In this document: in pieces, positions 2,844 through 53,036 of the stretch
How the letters are laid out: every line of letters starts with the position of its first letter
Numbering within the stretch: position 1 is the stretch's first letter
Assembly: GCA_964453135.1 (NCBI GenBank)
Contig: CAYVOL010000001.1
Span: 24,895-88,894 of the forward strand
Reading direction: 5' to 3'
DNA: 64,000 bases
Origin: an uncultured Candidatus Saccharibacteria bacterium
GTDB taxonomy: Bacteria > Patescibacteriota > Minisyncoccia > UBA6257 > UBA9933
The notes under the pieces: model-generated
What the model saw: only the letters and a program-made list of their open reading frames with translations
The model's database searches: none
What the model was told of the DNA's origin: nothing
Made by a program: the position numbers and the translations under genes

Positions 2844-4367
2844 CTATTTCGCATATTCCACGGCTTTAACTTCCCTGATGACATTGACTTTGATTTCGCC
2901 CGGATATTTCAGCTCCGCTTCAATTCTGTCGGCAACGTCTTTAGCTAATTGGTAAGCGCCGAAGTCGTCAATTTTTTCCGGCGTTACGAAAATCCTCAAT
3001 TCCCGTCCCGCGGAAATAGCGTAAGAATTTTTCACTCCGGCAAAACCATTGGCGATTTTCTCCAAATCTTCCAGCCGCTTGATATAATTTTCCAAGCTTT
3101 CCCTTCTCGCTCCGGGACGCGAAGCAGACAAAGCATCCGCCGCTGTTACCACAAACGATTCGGGCGTAGCGAAAGGATAATCTTCGTGATGCGCCTCCAT
3201 CGCCTTGATTACTTCTTCGGATATATTGTATTTTTTGAGTATTTTTCTTCCCAGTTCAATATGGCTTCCTCCCACTTCGTGGTCTATGGCTTTGCCGATG
3301 TCATGAAGCAAAGCCGCTTTTTTGGCAACTTCCACGTTCAAACCCAGCTCCGCCGCCATCATCGCCGCCAAATGAGTGGCCTCCAAGGAATGGAGCAAAA
3401 CATTTTGCCCATAGCTGGTGCGGAAATGAAGCCGCCCCAATAACTGAACAATCTCTTTGGGCAAGTCGTAAAGGCCGACTTCGTAAACCGCTTCCTCTCC
3501 TATTTCCGCGGTCCGCTTGTTCATTTCTTCCTTGGCTTCCTCCACTTTTTCTTCAATGCGCGCGGGCTGGATTCTCCCGTCTTTCATCAATTTTTCCAAA
3601 GCCAAACGGGCGATTTCCCGCCTCATGGGATCAAAAGAAGAAATGACGATGTAATCGGGCGATTCGTCAATGATAAATTCCACGCCCGTGGAGCGCTCGA
3701 GCGCTTTTATGTTTCTGCCTTCCCGTCCGATTATTTTTCCTTTCAGATCTTCATTTTCAAGATTGAAAATGGCAGTAGTGATTTCGGAAACATGGGAATG
3801 GCTATAGCGCTGAATGGCGACAGTCATAATGTCTTTGGCTTTGCTTTCCAATTCCTCACGCCTTTCTTTATTCAATTTTTGAACAAGGGAACTTAATTCT
3901 TTCTGGTTATCTTCGTAAACTCTTTTAATAAGGAGTTCTTTGGCTTTGTCAGATGTTAACCCCGCGACTTTCTGGATTTCTTCTTCGGATTTTTTTCTTA
4001 ATTCTTCAAGGTCGCTTTGCCGCTTTTTTATTTCTTCCTGTTCTTTGATTAATTTTTCCTCCCGCAAGCGGAAATGATTTACTTCGCTTTGAAGCGCCTC
4101 TTCCTTGGAACGAAATCTGTCTTCTAATTTATCCAGCTGCTGCTTTCTTTCCCGCTCTTCTTTTTTGATCTCTTCCAATATGTCAGCGGACTTGTTTTCC
4201 GCCTCTAAAACTATTTCTTTCGCCTTAACTTTTGCGTCTTCTAACTGATTTTCAATTTTTTTCTCCTGGCGGGCTTTACTTCCGGAAATAAGGAAATGGC
4301 GAAAGACATACACCGCCGCTCCGGCCGCCGCAACCAAAACTATCCCCAGAATTGGGTTGATGTACAT
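2844..4367 (-). CDS. rny: Ribonuclease Y (N-terminal TM, coiled coil, KH and HD domains)
   Basis: MYINPILGIVLVAAAGAAVYVF anchor. KH motif IIGREGRNIKALE. HD motif LLHDIGKAIDHE. Confidence 0.9.
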   Translation of the reverse strand: MYINPILGIVLVAAAGAAVYVFRHFLISGSKARQEKKIENQLEDAKVKAKEIVLEAENKSADILEEIKKEERERKQQLDKLEDRFRSKEEALQSEVNHFRLREEKLIKEQEEIKKRQSDLEELRKKSEEEIQKVAGLTSDKAKELLIKRVYEDNQKELSSLVQKLNKERREELESKAKDIMTVAIQRYSHSHVSEITTAIFNLENEDLKGKIIGREGRNIKALERSTGVEFIIDESPDYIVISSFDPMRREIARLALEKLMKDGRIQPARIEEKVEEAKEEMNKRTAEIGEEAVYEVGLYDLPKEIVQLLGRLHFRTSYGQNVLLHSLEATHLAAMMAAELGLNVEVAKKAALLHDIGKAIDHEVGGSHIELGRKILKKYNISEEVIKAMEAHHEDYPFATPESFVVTAADALSASRPGARRESLENYIKRLEDLEKIANGFAGVKNSYAISAGRELRIFVTPEKIDDFGAYQLAKDVADRIEAELKYPGEIKVNVIREVKAVEYAK

Positions 4368-4520
4368 ATGTTAAATTGTTCGCTAATTCATCCGTAAAAG
4401 TATGCGCCAAATCAGCATTCAGCGATACCATTATTTTAGTTAGGAACATAAAAAATGACTTTTATTATTACCCGTATTATAAAACTTTGCGATAAAAAGT
4501 AAACCCCGCCAGCGCAAGAA

Positions 4521-4755
4521 TGTCATCCTGAGTCCCCCGCCACGGCGGGGGACGAAGGATCTCGCTAAGATTCTTCACTACGTTCAGAATGACAGCGTAA
4601 GTCATCCTGAGCGAAGGCGAAGGATCTAACGAAATTTTTCTCCGCCAGTTGGCGTCCGCCGGCTGGCGGATCAGAATGACAGCTTTGGATTTCCGCTTTC
4701 GCGGGAATGACAGGCGCTAAGATTCTTCTCCGCCGGCTGGCGGATCAGAATGACA
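4521..4755 (+). repeat. Three tandem MITE core units (each ends in cagaatgaca)
   Basis: Unit boundaries near 4596 and 4682. Hairpins tcccccgccacggcggggga, gcgaaggcgaagg, ccgccagttggcgtccgccggctggcgg. Not CRISPR: the spacers are not unique and the units differ in length. Confidence 0.7.
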
Positions 4756-4896
4756 TTTTACGGACAGCGCCTCCCGTCAGTAATCAGTAAAAGATAGGGG
4801 CGGGCGGAACACATCATTTCGCCATGGCCGGAATGCCGTTGCGATAAGATATAAAAAGGGACAAAAAACTTTAATTAAGTCAAAATGGGTTTCGCA

Positions 4897-6780
4897 TTAT
4901 TGATAGCAATAATGATAGTAAAGTCGGCTACAGTTGGAATCTACTGGCTCAAAACTGGTTAATTGAACGTCTGTAAAACCAGCTGGACAGGAATACCCTC
5001 CGGTCCAAGGATTGGTTACTGCCGGTTGACACCCGCTACCGGAGATAGTCGTATACATTCCTCCAAATCTACCCGTGCTCGCCCAACGCGCGGGACCACC
5101 AGCTTGCGGAGAACCCAACCACACATCTCCACTCCAAACGGAAATATTTCCACCACTAACCGACAGTTTATTGTCCGGCGCTGTTGTTCCGATGCCGACG
5201 TACCCGTTACTTTGGTTAATATAATCGAGGCTATTTGCGAAATAAAGATCTCCTGTTGAATTGCTAATCATTAACGGTCGCAAGGTATTCCAACTCCCAT
5301 ATTGATTGCCGGAATTGGTAAGTAAAGGCATATATGTATTGACGCCATCATTTCTAATAAAAGCTCCGTAATTTCCAGATATAGCTCTAAATTGACCTGA
5401 GCCACCCCCTAAAGTACTAATGAATTCTGTTGCTGTTCTAGTAGAGCCATTGACATCTAATGTATAGCCTGGTGATGCCGTCCCGATACCCACGTAAGTT
5501 CCATTATCATATATCTGCGAATTGGTAATACTAGGCACAGTTCCCCATTTTGTAAGATAGTTTGTGGTGCCGGAAGTGTAGGTGACCGTACCCGCACCCA
5601 AACTGGTGCAGCTTCCAGCAGAAGTGACAATGCCGCCGGATATTGTAAGACCGCTGGGAGTGGTGCCTGCTGAACAGGTTAATGAATTGACGCCAGCAGT
5701 GCCGCCGCGCCGGTAATAATTGGTTGCGCCGACATTGATGTCTCCGGAAACATCAAGCTTGTAAACAGGAGACATTCCCACGCCGACATTGCCGGAAGAA
5801 TTCCAGACTCCGCTGCCCGGGAAATTAATTGTCCCGCTGAAAGTAGGGCTGGAACTAAAAACCAAAGAACCGCTGCCGGTTTCGTCGGTAATTATTGACG
5901 CTAAGTTGGCGGAAGTATCGGTGTTGAAATAAGTGGAAGACAAGCCGGCGATTTTTCCAGCGGAGGTTATTAAGTTGACATTGCCGGTGCCGAATTGGGC
6001 GGCGCCCTGGACATCAAGAAGCGCGCCGGGAGTGGAAGTTCCGACGCCGAGATATTTGTTGGTATTGTTCCAGAAAAGATTGGCGTCTCCGCCTAAAGTG
6101 CCGGCATTGTTGAATTGCACCTGGCCGGTGGAGCCGCCGGCGAATCCTGTGGGCCAGGAAGCAATGCAGGAACCGTTAAGGCAGAACTGGGTGGAGCTGG
6201 TGTTACCCGAAACTTCCAAGGGCTGGCTGGGATTAGAGGTGCCTACTCCGAAATTACCGGAGTTGTAATAAAGTTTAGAGCCGGAGGAAAAAAGGCAGGC
6301 GCTGTTGACGCATAGCCCGGTGTCGGAACGGACATAGCCGCCCAAGACGTCAAGCTTGACCCCTGGGCTGGCGGTGCCAACGCCGACATTGCCGCTCATA
6401 AGAGCAGTGGGGTTACCTTGTTTACCAATTTGTAATACTACGTTATTTCCACTATCAAAAAATTGATATTGAGTTGCATAACCGCCAGTACCGCCGGGAT
6501 TAAAACCCATCCAAGAATTAACTGAATCACCCGAAATATAAGAGGAATTCCCTAACCCAAATTTTAACGCTGATGTAACTCTCGCATTGCCATTAACATC
6601 TAATATATATTGCGGCGTCGTTGTCCCAATGCCCACATTGCCGCCGGAATAATATAAGACACCCCCCCCTGCGCCGGGAGCAGAGGAAGGAGAAGTCCAG
6701 CCGAAAACTACGGTGGCAAAAGAAACTGCTAAAATGAGGCAAGAGAATATGAAAAGGATTTTAGGAAGGGAGCGGGACAT
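4897..6780 (-). CDS. Secreted Gly-rich beta-helical repeat protein (tail-fibre-like repeats), Cys-rich C-terminus
   Basis: Signal/TM at the N-terminus. About 10 degenerate repeats of the form GNVGIGTTxPxxxLDVxG. C-terminal CxxGxxxC..C..YCY. Confidence 0.6.
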   Translation of the reverse strand: MSRSLPKILFIFSCLILAVSFATVVFGWTSPSSAPGAGGGVLYYSGGNVGIGTTTPQYILDVNGNARVTSALKFGLGNSSYISGDSVNSWMGFNPGGTGGYATQYQFFDSGNNVVLQIGKQGNPTALMSGNVGVGTASPGVKLDVLGGYVRSDTGLCVNSACLFSSGSKLYYNSGNFGVGTSNPSQPLEVSGNTSSTQFCLNGSCIASWPTGFAGGSTGQVQFNNAGTLGGDANLFWNNTNKYLGVGTSTPGALLDVQGAAQFGTGNVNLITSAGKIAGLSSTYFNTDTSANLASIITDETGSGSLVFSSSPTFSGTINFPGSGVWNSSGNVGVGMSPVYKLDVSGDINVGATNYYRRGGTAGVNSLTCSAGTTPSGLTISGGIVTSAGSCTSLGAGTVTYTSGTTNYLTKWGTVPSITNSQIYDNGTYVGIGTASPGYTLDVNGSTRTATEFISTLGGGSGQFRAISGNYGAFIRNDGVNTYMPLLTNSGNQYGSWNTLRPLMISNSTGDLYFANSLDYINQSNGYVGIGTTAPDNKLSVSGGNISVWSGDVWLGSPQAGGPARWASTGRFGGMYTTISGSGCQPAVTNPWTGGYSCPAGFTDVQLTSFEPVDSNCSRLYYHYCYQ

Positions 6781-6821
6781 TTTTTATTTATCGTTGTTTT
6801 TATTGTTATCCTGTTTTAATA

Positions 6822-6968
6822 GTCATCCTGAAAGTGTTTTTGTCATCCTGAGTCCCCCGCCACGGCGGGGGACGAAGGATCTCGCAAGATTCTTCACTGC
6901 GTTCAGAATGACGGGGTGGATTCTTCTCCGCCAGCTGGCGTCCGCCAGCTGGCGGATTCATAATGACA
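6822..6968 (+). mobile_element. MITE-like element, copy 4 (core, partial duplicated 5-prime end)
   Basis: gtcatcctgaaagtg partial, then tgtcatcctgagtcccccgccacggcgggggacgaaggatctcgcaagattcttcactgcgttcagaatgac...ccgccagctggcgtccgccagctggcggattcataatgaca. Confidence 0.7.
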
Positions 6969-7169: not shown

Positions 7170-8252
7170 TTAGTTTGCCACCAACGGGGCTGGACCCATC
7201 GGCGGCGAGAATAAAGGTCCGTTTGGAGGCAAAGGAGCCGGTCCGCCTCCTGGAAGTCCAGGGGAACCCGGAGGACCAATGGGACCTTGAGCGCCAACGG
7301 GGCCTTGTGAACCGACTGGGCCTTGCGGGCCTGCCGGACCTTGAGCGCCAGTTGCGCCCCCTGGCCCCTGAGGACCTGTCGAGCCCTGGGCTCCTTGAGA
7401 TCCTTGCGGACCTCTAAATCCTCGCGGACCCTGAACGCCTTGCTGGCCTTGGGGACCTTGCGGACCTACTGGGCCGCGAGGGTGATGAATGATATGGATG
7501 GAGGATGCTGCCGCTCCTCCGTAAATCGCGGCCTTATCAATGTCGCTCGCCGCCAAAAATGGGACGCCGCACTCCTCCGGAAGGAAGGCTTTTTCAAAAA
7601 TTCCTCCCAGAAGAGAACCACCGACCGCGGCTAACGCACCGATTGGATGGCTCATCGCCATGGCTCCGCCAAATCCGGCAAGCCCTCCCAAAGTGCCGCC
7701 CCATCCAGAGGGAGTACATCTTTTTTGCCAGGCATCTCTTCGCTCCAGGGCGTAATTCACCGCTGCCACCACATCTGCCTGAGTAATCTGCGGCTGTGGC
7801 GGAGGATACTGGTAAATAGCTTGAGGCGGTGGCGACGCTGGCATCGGCTGATACGACGCCGCTGCCGGCTGTTGAACAACTGCTTCTTGCGGCCGCGGAC
7901 GCGTTGCTGAAACCGCCCTGTCCTCAATGAAATTCAAAAACACTCGATTGAGAATAGGGTTGCCGCAGGCACATACTTTGTCCGCCAGCCAACGCTCTCC
8001 GTCTTTACGCATAGAGACTTCTGTTCCGACTGGCAACCAGCCAGTGGAAATTTTTCCGCTGGCGCCAATTATTTTCACCTCGGCATCCTCGTCCAACTTC
8101 ATGGTCGGGAGGTTTTCTTTCTTACAAAGGTCCGGCGCCACCGGGTCGGCGCCGATGTTAATATATTTTTTCCCGGTTTCCGCGGCAACGGGCGAAATCC
8201 CCGTCGCGGCTAATGCAACTATGGCAAGAGCAATGACACCCATTCTTCTCAT
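7170..8252 (-). CDS. Secreted collagen-like triple-helix repeat protein (GC-rich, SD-preceded)
   Basis: Signal peptide [25 protein letters not shown]-terminal run of G-X-Y triplets ([22 protein letters not shown]...). Strong SD aaggaggagggg upstream. Local GC is well above the neighbouring genes. Confidence 0.65.
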
Positions 8253-11605: not shown

Positions 11606-11822
11606 TATCCTGAACGTCTTTGTCATCTTGAGTTTTTTGTTTGTCATCCTGAGTCCCGCTTAGCGGGACGAAGGATCTCGTAAGATTCTTCTCCGCCAGT
11701 TGGCGGAGCCGGTTGGCGAATCAGAATGACAGAGGGTCGGAACTCATAATGACAGGGGGCTATCGGGAACAAAAATAGTCAATGTTTTGAACGTAAACAA
11801 CGCTATGAAATCTTACATATTA
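11606..11822 (+). mobile_element. MITE-like element, copy 5 (near full length: core plus right TIR)
   Basis: Core tgtcatcctgagtcccgcttagcgggacgaaggatctcgtaagattcttctccgccagttggcggagccggttggcgaatcagaatgaca. Right TIR caatgttttgaacgtaaacaacgctatgaaatcttacatatta at 11780-11822. Confidence 0.75.
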
Positions 11823-26663: not shown

Positions 26664-27337
26664 CCCCTTTCCACTTCTATCTTATTGGCTTTCTTTACCA
26701 CTTTCTCCCCGTACCTCCGCAAATGCCTTTTCCAGTGCGAGCCGGCGTAATACTTAGCCGCCGCGATCTTTTCAGCGCGAAACGAACCAGTGTCCGCTCC
26801 GGCGTTTCTAAGATAAAGCGCGGTAGCCAGGAAGGCGTCTCTGTGTCTCCATGGAGAGGGATGTTTGCCTGTAAGAAAAGCGATCTGGCCGCTGTATTCC
26901 GCCCAAGTTGACGGGATAAACTGCGCCGGCCCCATTGCCCCTCCATAAGTTCCGTCGCGGGCAATGGGACAAGAAACCGGAATCGTATCTGGATTCAAAC
27001 CCGATTCCCTGACAATTTCCAGAAATACAGGAATATCGCGCGTCGGGTGCATAGCAGTTTTATAATTGCACTTACCCATGCTTTTCCCCAACGTTGACTC
27101 GCGGTCCAAAACCGCCAGAATCAAGGCGGCGCGAACTCCGGTTTTCGATTCGGCAAACTTGGCGAATTTATAAGCGTCTTCAAACTTAAGCTCTCCGCCG
27201 CCGATAAATTCAAAAGTCTTATCCACCCTTTCCTTTTCTACCCAAATCATAGTCGCCATAAAAGCGACAATAATCACAATTAAAGCCGCCAAAGCGGAAG
27301 CTACCTTTGGGAATATCTTCTTGGCAATTGTTGTCAA
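26660..27337 (-). CDS. Membrane-anchored MltB-like lytic transglycosylase (SLT_2-type domain)
   Basis: [14 protein letters not shown], the family-3 lytic transglycosylase motif. SD aggagg plus TTG start. Confidence 0.6.
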
Positions 27338-27586
27338 TGTAATTTCCTCCTAATTCTGATAAAAGTTGTTCTTTTTGTTTTTAGAGATGTCTATTCTTAT
27401 TCTATTGTGAAGGTACTTATTCAGGCCGAAAAGTCAGCGGCCCGAATATTTTAAGCAGCCGCCCCATGATAAATCGCAGGGAATTTGCTTCCTCGTATTT
27501 ATCCATAATTTGATTAAATTGTCAAATTAATGTAAAATTATAATTTAAATATTTGGATTATGGTGTGCCTTTCAAAACTACTGCGA

Positions 27587-29005
27587 CTAAGCGTTTAAGG
27601 TATTTATATCCTGCTGGAATTCGTTGGCTTTCGTGACGGCTTTTTCTCCGTAGCTCCACAGATAATTTCTCCAGCGGGCGCCGGCGTAATATTTAGCCGC
27701 GGCAATTCTCTCGGCGTTAAACGAGCCCGCATCCGCTCCGGCATTTTTCAGAAAAAGAGCGGTGGCCAAAAAAGCATCGATATTTTTCCAAGGGGACGGA
27801 GGATTGTCGCCGGTAAAAGAAGCTATTTGGTCGCTGTATTTTGTCCAGGTGGAAGGAAGAAACTGCGCCGGACCCATTGCGCCGCCGTAAGCGCCGTCGC
27901 GAGAAATGGGACAAGAAACCATGGTCGTGTCCGGATTCAAATCAAGCGCTTTGGTGATTGCCAAAAAAATGGGAATGTCGCGCGTCGGATGCATGGCGTC
28001 TTTATAATTACATTTCCCCACATTTTTCCCCATAGCGGACTCGCGGTCCAACACCGCCAAAACCAGGGCGGCGCGCACGCCGGTTTTTGATTCGGCGAAC
28101 TTGGCAAATTTATACGCGTCTTCAAATTTCAGTTCTCCGCCGCCGATAAGTTCAAAAATCCTGCTTCTTATTTGTGCAGCAGTTTTTTGTGTTTCCGCCA
28201 GAATTTTTTTATACTCCGATTCTTTCCCTTTGGTAACTGTCAGCAGATTATTTTTTTCTTCTTTTGTTTTTTGGATAGAATTTTTTTGCTCTTCCTGGTA
28301 GCTTTTCAAAACCAGGGCGTCGTTTTTTTTCAAAGCCAGCTGTTCTTTCTGGTCCATCAATTCGCCGCGCAAACTGTTTAATTCCTGGACCGCCGCCCCT
28401 AATCTTTCCTGAGTGCTGTTAAGATGGCTTATTTCGTTAAAAGCGTCGGAGATTTTATTATTGGCCAAAATAACCGTGGCGATGTTCTCATTGTTTTTCT
28501 GATACATTTCCTGAAGAAGGAGAGAAATTATTTTTTTCTTGACGGTCATCTTGTCCTCAGTAGAGGTAATTTGGGATTGGGTCTGAACAAGGTCTTTATC
28601 CAGTTTTCGCAAGGTTAAGGTGACGGCTTTTATCTGCAGGCTTAATTTGGCAATTTTGTCGTTTAATTTTTTAATTTCCGACTGCAGGCTGTTGCCTTGT
28701 TTTTTGTATTCTCCGATTTTCTTTTCGTATTCATTCATCTGGCTTTCTAGCTGAGCCAGTTGAGCTTCCAGGGCTTTTCTTTCTTCGGAATTATTGGCTG
28801 ATTGAGCAGCCATAACTCCTCCGCTCGTGGGGGCCAGCACAGAATTAAGCACGAAAGAAGCAATAAAGAACAAAACAAAAAAAACGCTTAAGATGTTTTT
28901 AAGCGGCACTCGGATTACTTTTTGATAATTAAGATTTATCTGGCGAGGGTGATTATAATAGGAACTTCCTTCTTTTTTGATATCCCGAAGAATTTTTTGT
29001 CTCAT
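27587..29005 (-). CDS. TM anchor, ~250-aa coiled coil and C-terminal MltB-like lytic transglycosylase domain (paralog of 26660..27337)
   Basis: The C-terminal 190 aa align to the upstream paralog at about 70-75% aa identity ([14 protein letters not shown]). The N-terminal region is heptad-rich (LQSEIKKLNDKIAKLSLQIKAVTLTLRKLDKDL...). Confidence 0.65.
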   Translation of the reverse strand: MRQKILRDIKKEGSSYYNHPRQINLNYQKVIRVPLKNILSVFFVLFFIASFVLNSVLAPTSGGVMAAQSANNSEERKALEAQLAQLESQMNEYEKKIGEYKKQGNSLQSEIKKLNDKIAKLSLQIKAVTLTLRKLDKDLVQTQSQITSTEDKMTVKKKIISLLLQEMYQKNNENIATVILANNKISDAFNEISHLNSTQERLGAAVQELNSLRGELMDQKEQLALKKNDALVLKSYQEEQKNSIQKTKEEKNNLLTVTKGKESEYKKILAETQKTAAQIRSRIFELIGGGELKFEDAYKFAKFAESKTGVRAALVLAVLDRESAMGKNVGKCNYKDAMHPTRDIPIFLAITKALDLNPDTTMVSCPISRDGAYGGAMGPAQFLPSTWTKYSDQIASFTGDNPPSPWKNIDAFLATALFLKNAGADAGSFNAERIAAAKYYAGARWRNYLWSYGEKAVTKANEFQQDINTLNA

Positions 29006-35121: not shown

Positions 35122-35320
35122 TTAATTTGTAAGATTTCATAGCGTTGTTTACGCTTTTCATCATTGTTTTTTTATGGTCATCCTGAGTCCCGCTTAGCGG
35201 GACGAAAGATCTCGTTCCGAAGCAACAGACTTTCCGCTTGAACCAAAGAGATTCTTCGCTTCGCTCAGAATGACATGAAGGATTCTTTGTCCCCCGCCGT
35301 GGCGGGGGACAAAGAATGAC
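35122..35320 (+). mobile_element. MITE-like element, copy 6 (left TIR plus core), immediately upstream of the ODP-like gene start
   Basis: Left TIR ttaatttgtaagatttcatagcgttgtttacgcttttcatcattg. Core ggtcatcctgagtcccgcttagcgggacgaaagatctcg...ttcgctcagaatgaca...cccccgccgtggcgggggacaaagaatgaca. Confidence 0.75.
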
Positions 35321-35343
35321 AGGGGGGGGGGATAAAACGAGAT

Positions 35344-47063: not shown

Positions 47064-49493
47064 ATGAATCTAATTATCGTTGAGTCTCCGGCAAAAACAA
47101 AAACCATAGCAAAGTACCTCAAGGGCGATTACGTTGTGAAAGCCAGCGTGGGCCATATTCGCGACTTGCCGAAAAACAACAAGAAAGCCATTGACATTGC
47201 GGGCGGTTTCACGCCGCATTATGAAATCATCCCAGGAAAAGAAAAAGTCATCGCCGAACTGAAAGAAACAGCCGGAAAAACAAAAGAAATTTTATTGGCC
47301 ACTGACCCGGACAGAGAAGGAGAAGCCATTGCCTGGCACATCATTGAGGCATTAAGCCTCGGAAATTCAAGATTCAAGATTAAAAATTCAAAACTGCCGA
47401 GCATTAAGCGGATTGTTTTTAATGAAATCACGGAATCCGCTGTCAAAGAAGCGTTAAAACATCCGCGAGACATTGATGTGAACTTGGTAAAAGCGCAGGA
47501 AGCGCGCCGCGTTCTTGACCGATTAGTGGGATACGATTTAAGCGGATTGATCTGGAAAAAAGTGCGCTACGGATTGTCGGCCGGCCGGGTGCAATCTCCG
47601 GCTTTGCGCATTTTAATGGAGAAAGAACGAGAAATTCGCGCTTTTAAGCCGGAAAATTACTGGGTGATAACCGGCGAGTTTGAAACCAAAAATAACGATA
47701 AAATAATTCTTATTTGCGAAGAAGAGCCGCGGGATAAAAAAGAGATGGAAAGAATAGTGGAAACGGCGAAGAAAAATAAGTGGCAAATAATCAATGCGAC
47801 GCAAACGGAGGCAAAACGTTCTCCCCGTCCTCCATTTATCACTTCCACGCTCCAGCAGGCGGCCAGCTCCCGCTTGGGAATGGCGCCCAGCCGCACAATG
47901 TCTTTGGCTCAAAAACTTTACGAGCAGGGATTCATCACTTATATGAGAACCGACAGCGTCAATATCAGCAAGGAAATTCTGCCGCAGATTTACGGAGTAA
48001 TAGAAAAACGCTTCGGCAAGAAATATCTCGCTCCGCGCGCTTACGCGGCGAAAAGCAAGACCGCCCAGGAAGCGCACGAGGCAATCAGGCCCAGCCGCCC
48101 GGATTTTATTCCGCAAAATTTAGGCGGCCAAGCAAAAATAACCGACAAACAGCAATCATCTCTTTATCAATTAATCTGGGAAAGAACTGTTGCTTCGCAA
48201 ATGGCTGACGCGAAAATTTCACGGACAAAAATCTCCGCCAATATTTATGATCAGCATGATATCTCTGGTTATCATGATATTTCTGATCACCATGATGTTT
48301 CTAATCACCATGATATTTCTGGTCATCATAATGTTTCGGATCATCCTAATATTTCTGGTCATCCTGAGCGAAGCGAAGGATCTCAAAAAGATTCTTCGAC
48401 TGCTTCGCTCCATCAGAATGACAATAATAAAATCCCCAACTTTTCCACCACTGGCAGCATAGTCATTTTTGACGGCTGGCTGGCCGCCGACCCTCTCAGC
48501 CGCGGAGAAAATGTTGAACTGCCCGCGTTAAAAATTGGGGAACCGTTAAAACTTCTTAACATCAGCGATGAAGAAAAAACCACTGAGCCGCCTCCCCGCT
48601 ACACCGAAGCCGGACTGATTAAAGAATTGGAAAAGCGGGAAATCGGCCGTCCCAGCACATACGCGACTATCATAAAAACCTTATATGACCGCGGGTACAC
48701 AATTAAGGAAGGCAAGGCGCTGAAGCCGACGGACACCGGCGAAGTAGTCAGTAATTTTTTGGAAAAAAATTTTTCCGCTTATATCAGCGATTCCTTCACC
48801 GCGGAAATGGAAAATGAATTAGACGAAATCGCCGGCGGCAAAAGGCGCTACGAAAAAATGTTGGGCGATTTTTATAAGCCGTTCTCGCAGGCGGTGAAAG
48901 ACAAAGAAAAAACCGCGGAAAAATTAACCAACCTCGGCGAAGCGGACAAAGAACACAAATGTCCGGTTTGCGAAGGGCCGATGGTGATAAAATTATCGCG
49001 CAGCGGAAAATTTTTAAGCTGCGCTAAATTCCCCGAATGCCAGGGAGCACGAAAAATCGACGGCGCCGCAATGGAAGGCCCGAAAGAAACCGGCGAAAAA
49101 TGTCCGCAATGTAAAGAGGGAGATTTAATTGAGCGGGAAGGCCGCTTTGGCAAATTCATCGCCTGCTCCAACTATCCCAAATGTAAATTTATAAAAACCA
49201 GCGCGGAAGAAGAGGCGAAGAAAAAAACCGGTGTCGCCTGCCCGGAGTGCCAAAAAGGATTGTCCGCCGAAGCCTCGGCAAAGACAGGCGAGATTATGGA
49301 GCGCCGCGGACGCTTCGGCTTGTTTTATTCCTGCTCCAATTATCCCAAATGCAAATTTATTATGAAATCGCGGCCAACAGGAAACATTTGTAAATTATGC
49401 AAAGCGCTGATGATGGAGGGAACTAAAACAATTCCCGAACGCTGCAGTGATAAAAATTGCCCCAATTACAATCCGTCAAAACAAAAGAATTAA
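47064..49493 (+). CDS. topA: DNA topoisomerase I with C-terminal zinc ribbons and an in-frame repeat insertion
   Basis: Toprim start MNLIIVESPAKTKTIAKYL...HIRDLP. Several C4 zinc-ribbon repeats (CPVCEG...C..C; CPQCKEG; CPECQKG). Confidence 0.9.
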   Translation: MNLIIVESPAKTKTIAKYLKGDYVVKASVGHIRDLPKNNKKAIDIAGGFTPHYEIIPGKEKVIAELKETAGKTKEILLATDPDREGEAIAWHIIEALSLGNSRFKIKNSKLPSIKRIVFNEITESAVKEALKHPRDIDVNLVKAQEARRVLDRLVGYDLSGLIWKKVRYGLSAGRVQSPALRILMEKEREIRAFKPENYWVITGEFETKNNDKIILICEEEPRDKKEMERIVETAKKNKWQIINATQTEAKRSPRPPFITSTLQQAASSRLGMAPSRTMSLAQKLYEQGFITYMRTDSVNISKEILPQIYGVIEKRFGKKYLAPRAYAAKSKTAQEAHEAIRPSRPDFIPQNLGGQAKITDKQQSSLYQLIWERTVASQMADAKISRTKISANIYDQHDISGYHDISDHHDVSNHHDISGHHNVSDHPNISGHPERSEGSQKDSSTASLHQNDNNKIPNFSTTGSIVIFDGWLAADPLSRGENVELPALKIGEPLKLLNISDEEKTTEPPPRYTEAGLIKELEKREIGRPSTYATIIKTLYDRGYTIKEGKALKPTDTGEVVSNFLEKNFSAYISDSFTAEMENELDEIAGGKRRYEKMLGDFYKPFSQAVKDKEKTAEKLTNLGEADKEHKCPVCEGPMVIKLSRSGKFLSCAKFPECQGARKIDGAAMEGPKETGEKCPQCKEGDLIEREGRFGKFIACSNYPKCKFIKTSAEEEAKKKTGVACPECQKGLSAEASAKTGEIMERRGRFGLFYSCSNYPKCKFIMKSRPTGNICKLCKALMMEGTKTIPERCSDKNCPNYNPSKQKN
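48247..48423 (+). repeat. In-frame insertion in topA: 18-bp tandem repeats encoding x-H-H-D-I-S hexapeptides, followed by a 66-bp MITE core (gtcatcctgagcgaagcgaaggatctc...cagaatgaca)
   Basis: Six 18-nt units (ggttatcatgatatttct / gatcaccatgatgtttct / ...). The last unit merges into ggtcatcctgag, the MITE 5-prime end. The MITE core at 48358-48423 is 66 bp (22 codons). Confidence 0.8.
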
Positions 49494-49502
49494 TAAAAAA
49501 TT

Positions 49503-49564
49503 TGTCGTTCCCCGCCCCGCCGTGGCGGCGGGGCGGGGCGAGGAATCTCGCGGGATTGCTTTTC
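49503..49564 (+). repeat. MITE-family left half (module 1) at the left border of the ORFan island
   Basis: tgtcgttccccgccccgccgtggcggcggggcggggcgaggaatctcgcgggattgcttttcc, compared with tgtcatcctgag-hairpin-gaaggatctcgcaagattcttc. Confidence 0.55.
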
Positions 49565-49578
49565 CAATAAAACAAAGT

Positions 49579-49607
49579 TTGACTAAAATAGCATTTGCTG
49601 GTATTAT
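49579..49607 (+). promoter_or_regulatory. Consensus sigma70-type promoter (TTGACT, 17 nt, TATTAT) for the island operon
   Basis: ttgactaaaatagcatttgctggtattat. The 5-prime UTR ends in SD aaaggagg before ATG 49688. Confidence 0.55.
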
Positions 49608-49687
49608 ATAAAAAGTAAATAAACAGATTTTTATTGAGGCGTAAACACGCGGCACAATGATAGCGACTTCACAAAAGGAGGAACGAA

Positions 49688-50146
49688 ATGCTGGTGATCT
49701 CGGCTTTAAACACCATAAGACTGCTAATGGAAGAGGTGAAGGAAACCGAAATCCTGATAGAGCCGGAGGAAGAGGTGCGGAAAGGCGAGAGAGTCATAGG
49801 AGAGATGGCGGGAGAACTGAGAAAAATATACACCCTAGCGCAAGTTTACAGGCAAGCGGCAGTGAACTTGTCCCATTCTGTTTTAAATGGCGGCGCGACG
49901 GGCAAAGAATCAGAGAAGGGCAGGACGGCCTTCATAAAGATGAAGCGGTGCGAATATACCCATACCTATCTCATGGATACCCTGTGGCATTCTCTGTTCT
50001 TGTACTACGATGAAAAACTTTCCCATCTTTGCGCCGACACGGTTGCCGTAAGAGCCGGCTGGAAAATCGTCGTGTTCAATACTGACGACGCTGTTAAAGA
50101 ATGCGGCGAATGCCAATGCGGAACCGCAATGATTAATCCGAACTGA
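49688..50146 (+). CDS. Island ORFan 1, Cys-rich C-terminus (CGECQC)
   Basis: SD aaaggagg 8 nt before the ATG. 152 aa, no TM, GC-richer codons. Confidence 0.5.
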   Translation: MLVISALNTIRLLMEEVKETEILIEPEEEVRKGERVIGEMAGELRKIYTLAQVYRQAAVNLSHSVLNGGATGKESEKGRTAFIKMKRCEYTHTYLMDTLWHSLFLYYDEKLSHLCADTVAVRAGWKIVVFNTDDAVKECGECQCGTAMINPN

Positions 50147-50162
50147 AAAGAAAGGAGGCGCG

Positions 50163-50435
50163 ATGAACGTTTTGCTGGAATGTTTTAACGCCGCGTACAT
50201 TGAGGCACGGCGGCAATTTCAGAAGCAGTATCCGAAATACAACGCGGGCGCCGTGCTTTCTGCGTTTCAGAGATGCCCTCGCGCCCGCGGCGACCCCCGC
50301 GACATATCGGGAGCATACAAGCACGTTTTCGGCGGCGCGGAAACCGACGAAAAAGCACAGTGTTCCCAGTGCGATGGGTTTTTGTGGCGATACGAACGGG
50401 CTATCAGAAATTATTCCCGCGTTATGCGGGATTAA
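50163..50435 (+). CDS. Island ORFan 2 (90 aa, CSQC motif)
   Basis: SD gaaaggagg. Follows ORFan 1 after 16 nt. Confidence 0.45.
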   Translation: MNVLLECFNAAYIEARRQFQKQYPKYNAGAVLSAFQRCPRARGDPRDISGAYKHVFGGAETDEKAQCSQCDGFLWRYERAIRNYSRVMRD

Positions 50436-50462
50436 AAAGAAAGGAGACGCCTTATGTATTTA

Positions 50463-50498
50463 GGGCTGTCCCGCTGTTGAGCGGGACAGCCCTTTTTT
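50463..50498 (+). terminator. Rho-independent terminator
   Basis: gggctgtcccgctgttgagcgggacagcccttttttatt. Confidence 0.7.
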
Positions 50499-50650
50499 AT
50501 TGGCTTTCCGAACAACGCAATTTCTATTTGACAAAATTAAATAAAGTTGTATAATTATGAAATAAAAAGTGGCTCTTTCCCAATAAAATAACGGGATAAC
50601 GGGGTTTTTACCCCTAACGCGGCACTGCCGCAAAGAGAGGAGAAAGCGCG

Positions 50651-51034
50651 ATGAAGAGAATTTCTGTAATCGTCCTGTGTTTGGTTGTTGCTGGTTTCGC
50701 GTTAGTTGGTTGTTCACAACCGACACCCCAAGAGCGAAAGCAATACTATAACACCTTAACCCAACTCAAGAATGTCACGCGAGGAGATCTGATTGTCAAC
50801 AAAGATGGTTGGGTAGTAATCGTTTGCCTATCCCCCGTAAAAACAGCTGGTGGGATAGGAGAAGATATAAGCCTCCTTGTTAACGAGTGGGGGCTGTGGC
50901 AAACAAACATTCAAACTCTGTCGTATGAGCAGTATGTGCGCAGAGTTATTCTTAAAGGCGATCCGGATTATACAGATGCCCTAAGGCATTTTGCGATAAG
51001 GGATAAATACTATAAAGAGGCACCAATCAAATAA
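50651..51034 (+). CDS. Island lipoprotein (127 aa)
   Basis: Lipobox ALVGC after an h-region. SD agaggag. Confidence 0.5.
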   Translation: MKRISVIVLCLVVAGFALVGCSQPTPQERKQYYNTLTQLKNVTRGDLIVNKDGWVVIVCLSPVKTAGGIGEDISLLVNEWGLWQTNIQTLSYEQYVRRVILKGDPDYTDALRHFAIRDKYYKEAPIK

Positions 51035-51064
51035 ATATCGCGCACCTAAAGGAGGTGATATACG

Positions 51065-51256
51065 GTGCCATACTACTCAACGAAGAAGAAACACCACCGC
51101 AGCCATATCAGCGGCCAGCGGTGGGTGAAATCGGAGAATATGCAGGCCTACATTGAAAGCCTGCACCGCAAAGAGAAACAACTGATAAAGAAAATGGCGA
51201 AAATTCATTCCCGCTTCCGGTCTGAATATCAGAAGGAAGCGGCTCAAAGGAGGTGA
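51065..51256 (+). CDS. Island small basic protein (63 aa, GTG start)
   Basis: SD aaaggaggtgatatac before the GTG. Lys/Arg/His-rich. Confidence 0.35.
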   Translation: MPYYSTKKKHHRSHISGQRWVKSENMQAYIESLHRKEKQLIKKMAKIHSRFRSEYQKEAAQRR

Positions 51257-51261
51257 TATAC

Positions 51262-51753
51262 ATGAAGGCGAAGTTTGTTTTTTTCGCGGCCTTCGCGGCA
51301 ATAGCGGTGTTATGGCTCATCGTGGGTTGCGCTCCGGGGACGCAGTTAGCGTTTAACCCGGAGATTCAAATGAACGGGTTCGGCGGGGCGTATGGAACAT
51401 CATACAGCCCCACCCTCCGCTATGGTTACTACTATCCCTTCGCGGAGATAGTGGTAACCAACAACACACCTTATTATCTTCAGCCTGAGCAGGACGGCCG
51501 GCTAAAGGTTTTAAGGGATGCCCAGGGGCAGGTTTACACCACTATTGCCCCAGGGCAGTCTTTGAGATACCACATCGCCGTGCCGTACTATACTTCGGTG
51601 CCCACGGCGGTCGTGGCCAAGGCGTTTACGCCAGACGGGAGATTTATTGGCGTTGCCGATAGAAAGTTTTACTTCTACGGCAACATCAATCAACGTCTTT
51701 TGGAGTCGTGGGTGGTCAACACCTACGATGTCCGGGAGGCGCGCTCCCGTTAG
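51262..51753 (+). CDS. Island lipoprotein (about 164 aa, Tyr/Gly-rich)
   Basis: The identical SD context aaaggaggtgatatac is duplicated from the previous gene. Lipobox LIVGC. Confidence 0.5.
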   Translation: MKAKFVFFAAFAAIAVLWLIVGCAPGTQLAFNPEIQMNGFGGAYGTSYSPTLRYGYYYPFAEIVVTNNTPYYLQPEQDGRLKVLRDAQGQVYTTIAPGQSLRYHIAVPYYTSVPTAVVAKAFTPDGRFIGVADRKFYFYGNINQRLLESWVVNTYDVREARSR

Positions 51754-51773
51754 GATAAGACAAAAACATTTTT

Positions 51774-51812
51774 CCCCCGCAACAGGAATTCCTGTTGCGG
51801 GGCGTTTTATTT
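51774..51812 (+). terminator. Rho-independent terminator
   Basis: cccccgcaacaggaattcctgttgcggggcgttttatttt. Confidence 0.7.
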
Positions 51813-51821
51813 TAGGGGTTT

Positions 51822-51869
51822 GGATTGCTTCGCCCGCCCCGCCATGGCGGGGCGGGACTCGCAATGACA
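51822..51869 (+). repeat. MITE-family right half (module 2-like) at the right border of the island
   Basis: ggattgcttcgcccgccccgccatggcggggcgggactcgcaatgaca, compared with gattcttc...hairpin...attcagaatgaca. Confidence 0.5.
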
Positions 51870-51913
51870 AAAATATCAATTATGACTTCTCTAAAAAATG
51901 CTATAATAAATTA

Positions 51914-52525
51914 ATGATTGAAAACATTATTGTTCATTTTTCCGCGGCGCACCCTTTGACGACTTACGGGGCTATTTTCGGAGGAATGTTCATTGAGGGC
52001 GAAATTATTTTGCTTTTGTCAGGCGTTTTGATAAAAGCGGGAGCCATCAGATTTTTTTACACCCTTCTAATCACCTTTGCGGCAGTGGCCCTCCACGACA
52101 TCGCCTACTGGTACATCGGCAAAAAACTTTTTCAATTCCATCAGACACGATTCCTCTGGTTCAAAATAGACAAAATCCTGCCGTTTCTTCACAAAATAAA
52201 AAGGCGGGAAGGATTTTATGTTTTCGTTTCCAAATTCATCTGGAATACCAACCGCTTCGTCTTAATATCTTTGGGCTATCTCAACACGCCCTTGGAAAAA
52301 TTTTTGAAGAACAGCCTGATGGCCGCTTTCTTCTGGCCCTTGACGCTGATTTCTTTGGGCTATATGTTTGCCGAACAAACCGAGCTGTTGCGGCAAGATT
52401 TGAAAATCGCCGCGATATTTGTAATAATCTTTGCTGCTGTTATCATGGTTTTAGGAGCGTCTTTCCAAAAATTCTTCAGAATCTTGAACGGCAATGCGGA
52501 GAGTATTTCCGGAAAAAAATCCTGA
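51914..52525 (+). CDS. DedA/VTT-family membrane protein
   Basis: Start at Met MIENIIV (the ORF-track N-terminus overlaps the island). TYGAIFGGMFIEGEIILLLSGVL motif. Confidence 0.65.
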   Translation: MIENIIVHFSAAHPLTTYGAIFGGMFIEGEIILLLSGVLIKAGAIRFFYTLLITFAAVALHDIAYWYIGKKLFQFHQTRFLWFKIDKILPFLHKIKRREGFYVFVSKFIWNTNRFVLISLGYLNTPLEKFLKNSLMAAFFWPLTLISLGYMFAEQTELLRQDLKIAAIFVIIFAAVIMVLGASFQKFFRILNGNAESISGKKS

Positions 52526-52526
52526 A

Positions 52527-52603
52527 GCGCGCGTAGCTCAGCCGGTTAGAGCGTCTCGTTTACACCGAGAAGGTCCCCTGTTCGAGCCAGGGCGCGCGCA
52601 CCA
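52527..52603 (+). tRNA. tRNA-Val (anticodon UAC), CCA encoded; starts 2 nt after the DedA stop
   Basis: Manual fold: acceptor GCGCGCG/CGCGCGC, D-arm GCTCAGCCGGTTAGAGC, anticodon loop UUUACAC, T-arm CCCTGTTCGAGCCAGGG, ACCA. Confidence 0.85.
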
Positions 52604-52792
52604 ATTCAAAATTTGATTTTTCCAAAAAACTTGCTACAATATGATTGAGTCGTGGCAGTGATTCTCGGGTCAATGGATTAAAAAGGGAGGGAGTATTTAG
52701 TCTTCGGATTGAAAATCCCACCCACCTGGTTTACAGCCGGGATAATCCCACGCCACGGCTCTTTTAGCGCCAATTTAAATTGAAATAATTTT

Positions 52793-52993
52793 ATGCGCCA
52801 ATGTGAAATCTGCGGGAAAGGGTCTATTATGATGGCGGGCAGAAAAAAACTGCGCGGCAAATATAATCCCACTCCCGCGACAAGAAAATATCCCAATTTG
52901 CAAAAAGCTCTTCTCGCTGACGGAAGGCGCGTTTTGGCTTGCACAAAATGCATCAGGACCGACGCCAAAACAAAAAACAAGACAAAAAAGTAG
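52793..52993 (+). CDS. rpmB: 50S ribosomal protein L28
   Basis: CEICGKG zinc knuckle, RKYPNLQ motif, second CxxC. Confidence 0.6.
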   Translation: MRQCEICGKGSIMMAGRKKLRGKYNPTPATRKYPNLQKALLADGRRVLACTKCIRTDAKTKNKTKK

Positions 52994-52994
52994 C

Positions 52995-53036
52995 ATACCA
53001 AAACTCCCCCCGCCATGGCGGGGGGAGTTTTGGTAT
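52995..53036. terminator. Bidirectional hairpin terminator
   Basis: ataccaaaactccccccgccatggcggggggagttttggtat. Confidence 0.7.

Follow-up and report, generated by a model that had tools for sequence, protein, structure and literature searches.

We analyzed the interval between topA and a DedA-like gene (dedA) in a 64-kb window of contig CAYVOL010000001.1, which derives from a Patescibacteria genome; positions are those of the window, and handles beginning with L denote loci in other assemblies. The interval contains five small open reading frames (ORFs), two strong sigma70-type promoters, two strong terminators, and two lipoboxes, and a GC-rich palindromic unit bounds it on either side (Table 1). 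An initial annotation, made from the letters alone, had described a five-gene cassette between topA and a DedA gene, with a near-perfect sigma70 promoter, two strong terminators, proteins with the cysteine motifs CGECQC (ORF1) and CSQC (ORF2), two lipoproteins with LVGC (ORF3) and IVGC (ORF5) lipoboxes, and a basic protein of 63 amino acids (aa), here ORF4. All of these features were recovered, the reading of two lipoproteins with partner proteins holds, and a second, perfect promoter (P2) that had been missed can be added. Assemblies of two other sequencing runs (L001 and L007) give 100% identity over 48692-52575 and 51397-53024, so the locus structure, including its five genes, is not an assembly artifact. 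The origin of the locus is where our reading departs from the earlier one: the topA-dedA interval is probably a resident, vertically inherited, fast-evolving islet of small envelope-associated genes, which the repeats at its ends would not have carried.

Table 1. Coordinates of genes, transcription signals, and palindromic units in and around the topA-dedA interval
Feature	Position	Strand	Description
topA	47064-49493	+	Stop at 49493
Left palindromic unit	49503-49561	+	Starts 10 nt past topA stop codon
Promoter P1	49579-49607	+	TTGACT-17-TATTAT, upstream TG; kept in L002
ORF1	49688-50146	+	152 aa, acidic, pI 5.6
ORF2	50163-50435	+	90 aa, basic, pI 9.2
Mini-ORF	50454-50480	+	8 codons, MYLGLSRC, own Shine-Dalgarno (SD) sequence AAAGGAGA; read from sequence
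Terminator T1	50462-50493	+	Perfect 14-bp stem, then T-run
Promoter P2	50528-50555	+	Perfect TTGACA-16-TATAAT; counterpart in L002
ORF3	50651-51034	+	127-aa predicted lipoprotein, lipobox LVGC
ORF4	51065-51256	+	63 aa, GTG start, pI 10.5
ORF5	51262-51753	+	163-aa predicted lipoprotein, lipobox IVGC
Terminator T2	51775-51802	+	Kept in L002
Right palindromic unit	51821-51869	-	Complete single unit; absent from L002
DedA-like gene (dedA)	51914-52525	+	203 aa, putative VTT-domain membrane protein

The signals divide the interval into two compact units, one comprising P1, ORF1, ORF2, and T1, and the other comprising P2, ORF3, ORF4, ORF5, and T2. P1 would drive transcription of ORF1 and ORF2 as far as T1, which folds at -36 kcal/mol (z = -6.5), and P2 would drive a coupled ORF3-ORF4-ORF5 message ending at T2. 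The dedA gene would be transcribed from an extended -10 promoter of its own.

The same locus is present in a sister genome fragment, L002 (Logan ERR6221073, a 2.5-kb contig), with the order topA, P1, ORF1', T1, P2, ORF5', T2, dedA. Amino acid identity to the window is 77% for the TopA C terminus, 88% for the DedA N terminus, and 67% for ORF5', and homology runs from the -35 element of P1 to the T-run of T2. The flanks of L002 show no repeat-unit similarity beyond that of shuffled sequences (p = 0.16-0.99; positive control z of about 9). CATTGC and CAGAATG motifs in these flanks were considered as decayed repeat units and rejected, as they gave no signal against shuffles; CAGAATG aligns with the conserved -10 region of dedA. 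The initial annotation had proposed that the cassette was either cargo of a miniature inverted-repeat transposable element (MITE) or an insertion that had split one. Against both proposals, L002 carries orthologs of ORF1 and ORF5 together with both promoters and the terminators, and no repeats. A sister genome with the same genes at the same locus and no flanking repeats had been named in advance as the finding that would refute these proposals, and L002, with its orthologs of ORF1 and ORF5, provides that finding. Nor are topA and dedA adjacent there, as had been considered, since ORF1' and ORF5' lie between them.

The closest species-representative genomes, whose TopA C termini are 70-80% identical, belong to Paceibacterota/Wolfebacteria, and by topA similarity the host genome appears to be close to this group. 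These representatives have no cassette gene and no dedA within 6 kb downstream of topA. In L008, L009, L014, and L016, the next gene after topA encodes a RelA/SpoT-like HD-domain protein, with parB/parA behind it, and neither relA/spoT-type genes nor parB/parA occur in the 64-kb window. Because the closest representatives have other genes after topA, the topA-dedA junction is specific to the window's genus and lies at a synteny break, and distant relatives with relA/spoT after topA are uninformative on the question of an empty site.

All five proteins had been described as ORFans. In support of this description, none has a match above noise in Pfam, PHROGs, NCBIfam, or PADLOC; it fails for ORF5, which has a family, for ORF4, which has a homolog, and for ORF1, which has an ortholog. 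When 1.84 billion representatives were searched with an ORF5 profile, 18 matched, and with two exceptions the matches are proteins 120-175 aa long; because this search finds a family, which spans about 17 clusters, ORF5 is not an ORFan. The lipobox cysteine is invariant in all 17 aligned members, and the AlphaFold2 (AF2) model of ORF5 is a beta-sandwich with a predicted local distance difference test score (pLDDT) of 84. ORF5 belongs to an unnamed family of predicted beta-sandwich lipoproteins, which can be set beside the small beta-sandwich lipoproteins and pilotins TssJ, ExsB, and the C-terminal domain of AlgF.

Members of this family are repeatedly found next to DedA. Seven genomic contexts reached through the lipoprotein were readable, and in five of them (L002, L088/89, L090, L091, and L108) a DedA ortholog lies directly 3' of the ORF5-family gene, with 47-53% identity or a clearly homologous N terminus. 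Two more pairs, in L092 and L095, were reached from the DedA side, and a small basic ORF4-like ORF stands immediately upstream of the ORF5 homolog in L092 and L090. Because the pair recurs in distant relatives, the adjacency of ORF5 and dedA predates this genome; since the gene pair pre-existed, the right-hand repeat entered secondarily between the two genes. Two members of the family (L003 to L006, 4613-5095 in L003; L106, 3001-3528) have a second conserved context, near dnaA/dnaN in Patescibacteria from Hainich groundwater, in which the genes directly 3' of them are (yebC)-ruvC, then a small ORF, then one for a class A penicillin-binding protein.

The product of dedA matches the Pfam VTT_dom (PF09335) with an E value of 2e-6 and 28.7 bits, below the 33.9-bit cut-off, and its ortholog in L091 has a precomputed weak VTT_dom match. 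Hydrophobic windows resembling transmembrane (TM) segments extend from residue 20 to about residue 190. A search of genome and metagenome contigs with DedA as the single query gave no match. DedA proteins have been implicated in the flipping of undecaprenyl phosphate (UndP) or phospholipids, including phosphatidylethanolamine (PE), with UptA-type UndP flippases and PetA as examples (PMC10127716, PMC10193950). The downstream gene at this locus resembles the superfamily in its length of about 200 aa, its predicted multiple membrane spans, and its conserved ORF5-family neighbor, and departs from it in a Pfam score below the gathering threshold and in having lipoprotein and small basic neighbors. 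We know of no lipoprotein or small basic partner described for DedA proteins, nor, more generally, of partner proteins described for the DedA candidate lipid-carrier flippases.

From conserved adjacency only, we infer a functional link between ORF5 and DedA. ORF3 and ORF5 would be exported and held by a lipid anchor at the outer face of the cytoplasmic membrane, where ORF5, possibly with ORF4, may assist a DedA-type transporter of lipid or UndP or act in the same envelope process. ORF4 and ORF5 would belong with dedA, ORF1 would be shared with the sister lineage, and ORF2 and ORF3 would be lineage-specific additions. A more specific proposal is that ORF4, ORF5, and DedA make up an unrecognized three-component envelope module of Paceibacterota-type Patescibacteria, in which the lipoprotein and a cytoplasmic basic protein work with or regulate the flippase; we put this forward only tentatively, as a possibility that is on the whole doubtful. 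As far as we know, the lipoprotein family and its linkage to DedA are unannotated and undescribed. The envelope biology of Patescibacteria is poorly understood, and the recurrent link between an unannotated lipoprotein family and a DedA gene offers a new lead of modest weight.

The remaining proteins are less widely distributed or more variable. The N-terminal two thirds of ORF1 is predicted to be helical, and a single-sequence AF2 model shows three long helices at low confidence (pLDDT 57). Its single ortholog is ORF1' of L002 (30% identity, E = 8e-17), in which the C-terminal cysteine tail is not kept, and between the two genomes ORF1 has diverged far faster (30%) than the flanks (77-88%). 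ORF2 has four cysteines, at positions 7, 38, 67, and 70. Profile, IMG/VR, PDB, and six-frame ORF searches detected no homolog of ORF2 or ORF3, and PDB sequence searches were likewise empty for ORF1. Lipoboxes were defined as an N-terminal signal peptide ending in [LVI][ASTVI][GAS]C, and both ORF3 (...FALVGC, Cys21) and ORF5 (...WLIVGC, Cys23) carry one behind a hydrophobic segment; we infer lipidation and a surface location for both proteins. An hhalign comparison of ORF3 with the ORF5 family gave a probability of 77%, mostly contributed by the signal peptide. ORF4 is very basic and has no TM segment. A small basic ORF of L092 was found as its homolog with an E value of 8e-6 in about 1 Mb of six-frame ORFs, and ORF4-like sequences share the conserved pattern KKKHRSHI.G..RW.KS....IE..HR. 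No PADLOC, Pfam, or NCBIfam model of known anti-phage defense or toxin-antitoxin systems was matched by the five proteins, and the similarity of ORF4 to the RelB antitoxin (E = 0.033) is far below the cut-off.

The units at the two ends of the interval belong to a palindromic repeat family with many copies in the window. Intact copies (2725-2803, 4521-4594, 6841-6914, and 11643-11731) consist of TGTCATyCTGAG, hairpin 1, CGAAGGATCTCGCAAGATTCTTC, hairpin 2, and TyCAGAATGACA; they are 75-90 bp long, noncoding, and multicopy, with terminal inverted repeats TGTCATTCTGAG...CTCAGAATGACA and centers that range from 5 to about 26 nt. Solo units occur at 4703-4755, 35278-35322, and 51821-51869, alongside pairs, clusters of at least three units, and truncated copies, with clusters at 4521-4755 and 6797-6968. 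The copies that were read end in (T)GTCAT / ATGAC(A). The 64 kb contain 9 occurrences of the terminal motif GTCATYCTGAG, where 0.03 would be expected, and related GTCATTGCGAG elements are present in other Patescibacteria loci. Literature searches for the terminal motifs returned only primers and vectors. The genome is thus heavily colonized by a modular palindromic repeat, even in frame inside topA: an insertion at 48241-48430, amounting to about 55 aa that four relatives lack, comprises six 18-nt tandem repeats encoding HDISGY-like hexapeptides and, after them, a complete palindromic element in frame (..GHPERSEGSQKDSSTASLHQNDNNK..).

In distribution and modularity these repeats behave like repetitive extragenic palindromic (REP) sequences and bacterial interspersed mosaic elements (BIMEs), and in the ends of their paired form they behave like MITEs. 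REP-like elements typically lie at the 3' ends of transcription units, have been reported inside genes, including replication-related ones, and fall into two superfamilies defined by a GTAG or CGTC tetranucleotide tag (PMC3733652). The units described here are similarly GC-rich imperfect palindromes of about 45 nt, mostly intergenic and often just 3' of genes, that occur at high copy number as single units, inverted pairs, and larger clusters in alternating orientation, with one copy inside the replication-related gene topA. Unlike REPs and BIMEs, they end in TGTCAT...ATGACA without a GTAG or CGTC tag, and their paired form has true, MITE-like terminal inverted repeats. No REP-associated tyrosine transposase (RAYT, of the IS200/IS605 type) turned up, in a scan of selected window ORFs against Pfam that included no search aimed at RAYTs. 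For the MITE side of the comparison, Correia/CREE, ERIC, and RUP elements serve as examples (review PMC10969869). The intact copies agree with MITEs in being short, noncoding, multicopy, and bounded by terminal inverted repeats, and differ in being modular, with interchangeable hairpins and solo half-units; no target-site duplication flanking the present locus and no cognate autonomous insertion sequence was identified, no transposase search having been made in the window. Rickettsia palindromic elements insert in frame within protein-coding genes, as one copy of the present family has done in topA.

In the left flanking unit, an outer end reading TGTCGT is followed by a GC hairpin of 13 bp, an inner end reading CGAGGAATC, the center TCGC, and 9-10 nt (GGGATTGCTT) that correspond to the beginning of a second unit; its folding energy is -39.9 kcal/mol (z = -3.8). 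The right unit, on the minus strand, reads TGTCATTGCGAGT, hairpin, CGAAGCAATCC, and folds at -31.8 kcal/mol. The two units match each other with z of about 9 over shuffles. Both would be copies of the abundant REP/BIME- or MITE-like element of this genome that arrived in this lineage when an active subfamily inserted twice, once behind topA as a full copy with a 3' truncation and once behind T2 as a solo unit, each time at the 3' end of a transcription unit. This two-insertion reading is parsimonious rather than demonstrated. Being bracketed by repeats is not special to the cassette, because the housekeeping RNase Y gene rny (2844-4367) is bracketed likewise, between the elements at 2725-2803 and 4521-4755, and in a repeat-rich genome dispersed copies on both sides of a gene say little about its mobility. 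Outside the flanking units there is no shared direct repeat (aaaaaattt beyond TGTCGT; aaaatatca beyond AATGACA). The gene islet itself is an ordinary lineage-specific accessory envelope locus in such a genome.

Several observations weigh against a resident, vertically inherited islet. The comparison draws on one sister locus on a 2.5-kb contig, so that the polarity of gain here versus loss there rests on parsimony, and the products of ORF2 and ORF3 are predicted from sequence only. Four of the five ORFs show moderately elevated GC content at third codon positions (GC3; 0.59-0.67 against 0.43-0.54 in neighboring genes, with ORF3 at 0.41). The tetranucleotide distance of the cassette is at the 94th percentile, while the parts of the window at 4-6 kb and 24-25 kb deviate more. 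On the side of the DedA linkage, an ORF5-family gene lies upstream in only 2 of about 11 distinct DedA-ortholog loci, which makes the partnership of ORF5 and DedA facultative rather than obligatory, and two ORF5-family members adjoin (yebC)-ruvC-PBP1A (penicillin-binding protein 1A) instead of DedA. Finally, the flanking units look like a split element, a likeness for which two independent insertions give no positive explanation: they share a hairpin, CCCGCCCCGCC, found nowhere else in 64 kb, and, joined through a 9-bp overlap (GGATTGCTT), they line up collinearly as one canonical full element. The earlier description of the flanks as two halves was thus geometrically accurate.

This geometry is what one would expect if a full two-hairpin element with the center GGAATCTCGCGGGATTGCTTCG had stood between topA and dedA and had been split by a 2.26-kb insertion running from P1 to T2. 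Besides the collinearity of the joined halves with intact elements, such an event would account for two hairpins that hardly differ from each other and have no further copy in the window, and for the direct repeat of GGATTGCTT at 49553-49561 and 51821-51829, which would be a 9-bp target-site duplication. We nonetheless regard this history as unlikely. It would need the chance recreation of an ORF4/ORF5-dedA adjacency that distant genomes also keep; in the sister genome the genes are present and neither half has left a trace; and the P1-T2 segment lacks terminal inverted repeats, a transposase, or a recombinase. The 9-mer GGATTGCTT sits in the inner inverted repeat of the element itself, and any two family copies would therefore be expected to share it; solo units and truncated copies also occur elsewhere in the window. 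It is extremely improbable that the cassette is, or formerly was, mobile as a unit carried as cargo between the halves of the repeat. A gene cassette riding inside a MITE would be a rare bacterial analog of cargo-carrying MITEs, and both the variable centers of intact elements (5 to about 26 nt) and the outer ends TGTCGT...AATGACA, which flank the cassette oriented as they are in an intact copy, are compatible with one. The evidence is nevertheless against it: among 5.8 billion proteins there was no further copy of any cassette protein beyond two identical same-locus contigs, its own NCBI contig, and the syntenic sister, contrary to the suggestion that the same cassette might be found between MITE halves elsewhere. 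There were no matches in phages, plasmids, or IMG/VR either, the sister locus is without repeats, and no target-site duplication is visible outside the element. An ability of the palindromic family to open around gene-sized DNA and enclose it is less likely than an ORF4-ORF5-DedA module.

A phage origin, also raised in the initial annotation as a phage-derived surface module, would make the locus a prophage remnant or a moron-type surface module, for example, one encoding superinfection-exclusion lipoproteins. Small genes with strong promoters and SD sequences, lipoproteins, rapid evolution, and slightly atypical composition all fit such an origin, which is still very unlikely given the searches made for it. 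There is no PHROGs match below E = 0.04, a tblastn search with the five concatenated proteins against 50,697 phage records and a plasmid collection was empty, as were IMG/VR scans with ORF1, ORF2, and ORF3, and the ORF5 model had no meaningful match in BFVD (TM-scores at most 0.33). No integrase, att site, or phage gene lies near the cassette, and ORF5-family genes occupy housekeeping neighborhoods in other genomes. The content of the islet is a separate matter, as perhaps only ORF4, ORF5, and possibly ORF1 are functional, with ORF2 and/or ORF3 being spurious or decaying in a variable spacer. The two ORFs have no homologs that we could find and are missing from the sister locus, and the GC3 of ORF3 (0.41) is unlike that of its operon partners; each of them, however, has a properly spaced SD and fits exactly between the neighboring signals, the signal peptide and lipobox of ORF3 are textbook examples, and the other two runs give the same sequence. 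We consider spurious or decaying ORFs rather unlikely, and retain the resident islet of five small genes as the favored explanation.

Part of the case for foreign DNA had been a canonical SD sequence before each gene and a sharp difference in SD use and GC content from the flanking genes. The motif AAAGGAGG is present in four of the five cassette ORFs (ORF1 has AAAGGAGG and ORF2 has GAAAGGAGG), and its place before ORF3 is taken by the weaker GAGAGGAGA. A crude scan of the window placed SD matches of at least 7 nt before 4/5 cassette ORFs and only 3 noncassette ORFs elsewhere, and 38 of 69 ORFs showed no SD-like motif. The SD contrast is therefore real, whereas the GC contrast was overstated (0.43-0.55 per cassette ORF against 0.44 for the window). 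Because orthologs of the cassette genes in other genomes have equally strong SDs, a strong SD characterizes the genes themselves and does not point to a foreign origin.

The last codons of ORF4 (CAA AGG AGG TGA) constitute the SD of ORF5, which suggests that ORF4 and ORF5 are translationally coupled. An exact 16-mer, AAAGGAGGTGATATAC, precedes both ORF4 (51048-51063) and ORF5 (51246-51261) and also occurs in L002 (about 1396-1414), past ORF1' and with no ORF behind it. The sequence AAAGGAGGTGAT is presumably the full complement of the 3' tail of 16S rRNA, and in L092 the same 12-mer would encode the K-G-G-D that ends the ORF4-like ORF, as predicted and not from DNA. The mini-ORF ahead of P2 ends inside the 5' arm of T1, and its translation could melt T1 and so couple read-through to the second operon. 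At dedA, an extended -10 element, TGcTATAAT (51899-51907), stops 6 nt ahead of the ATG, and TGtTATAAT is found at the same distance from the ATG in L002 (about 2163-2180), which suggests that the dedA mRNA is leaderless. The broader idea that genes without an SD are generally leaderless was rejected, as -10 hexamers were not enriched just upstream of starts in a window-wide test. Rfam searches at gathering and E-value thresholds returned tRNAs and subthreshold noise only, with no riboswitch or leader, and the folds of the 5' untranslated regions are unremarkable. A 17-nt repeat, CTTTTCCAATAAAACAA, at 49559 and 50575 was set aside as being at chance level by estimate.

Beyond the islet, tRNA-Val(TAC) (52527-52603) begins 2 nt after the dedA stop codon, and a perfect 24-nt palindrome at 52995-53036 forms a bidirectional terminator behind an unannotated ORF at 52793-52993 that is L28-like by eye. 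The repeat clusters at 2725-2803, 4521-4755, and 6797-6968 bracket rny, the gene for a 627-aa protein (4897-6780) with the trimerization domain of the phage long-tail-fiber protein Gp34, and a collagen-repeat protein gene (7170-8252) that has a strong SD; in composition, no part of the window deviates more than the 4-6 kb stretch. Three collinear direct repeats at 26685-28160, 141-204 nt long with 73-82% identity and a spacing of about 940 nt, indicate tandem paralogous genes. In L090, the spacer between thrS and the ORF4-like ORF (4490-4770) translates to repeated PRLY(S/R)RGF motifs, which suggests that a different dispersed repeat family occupies the equivalent position there.

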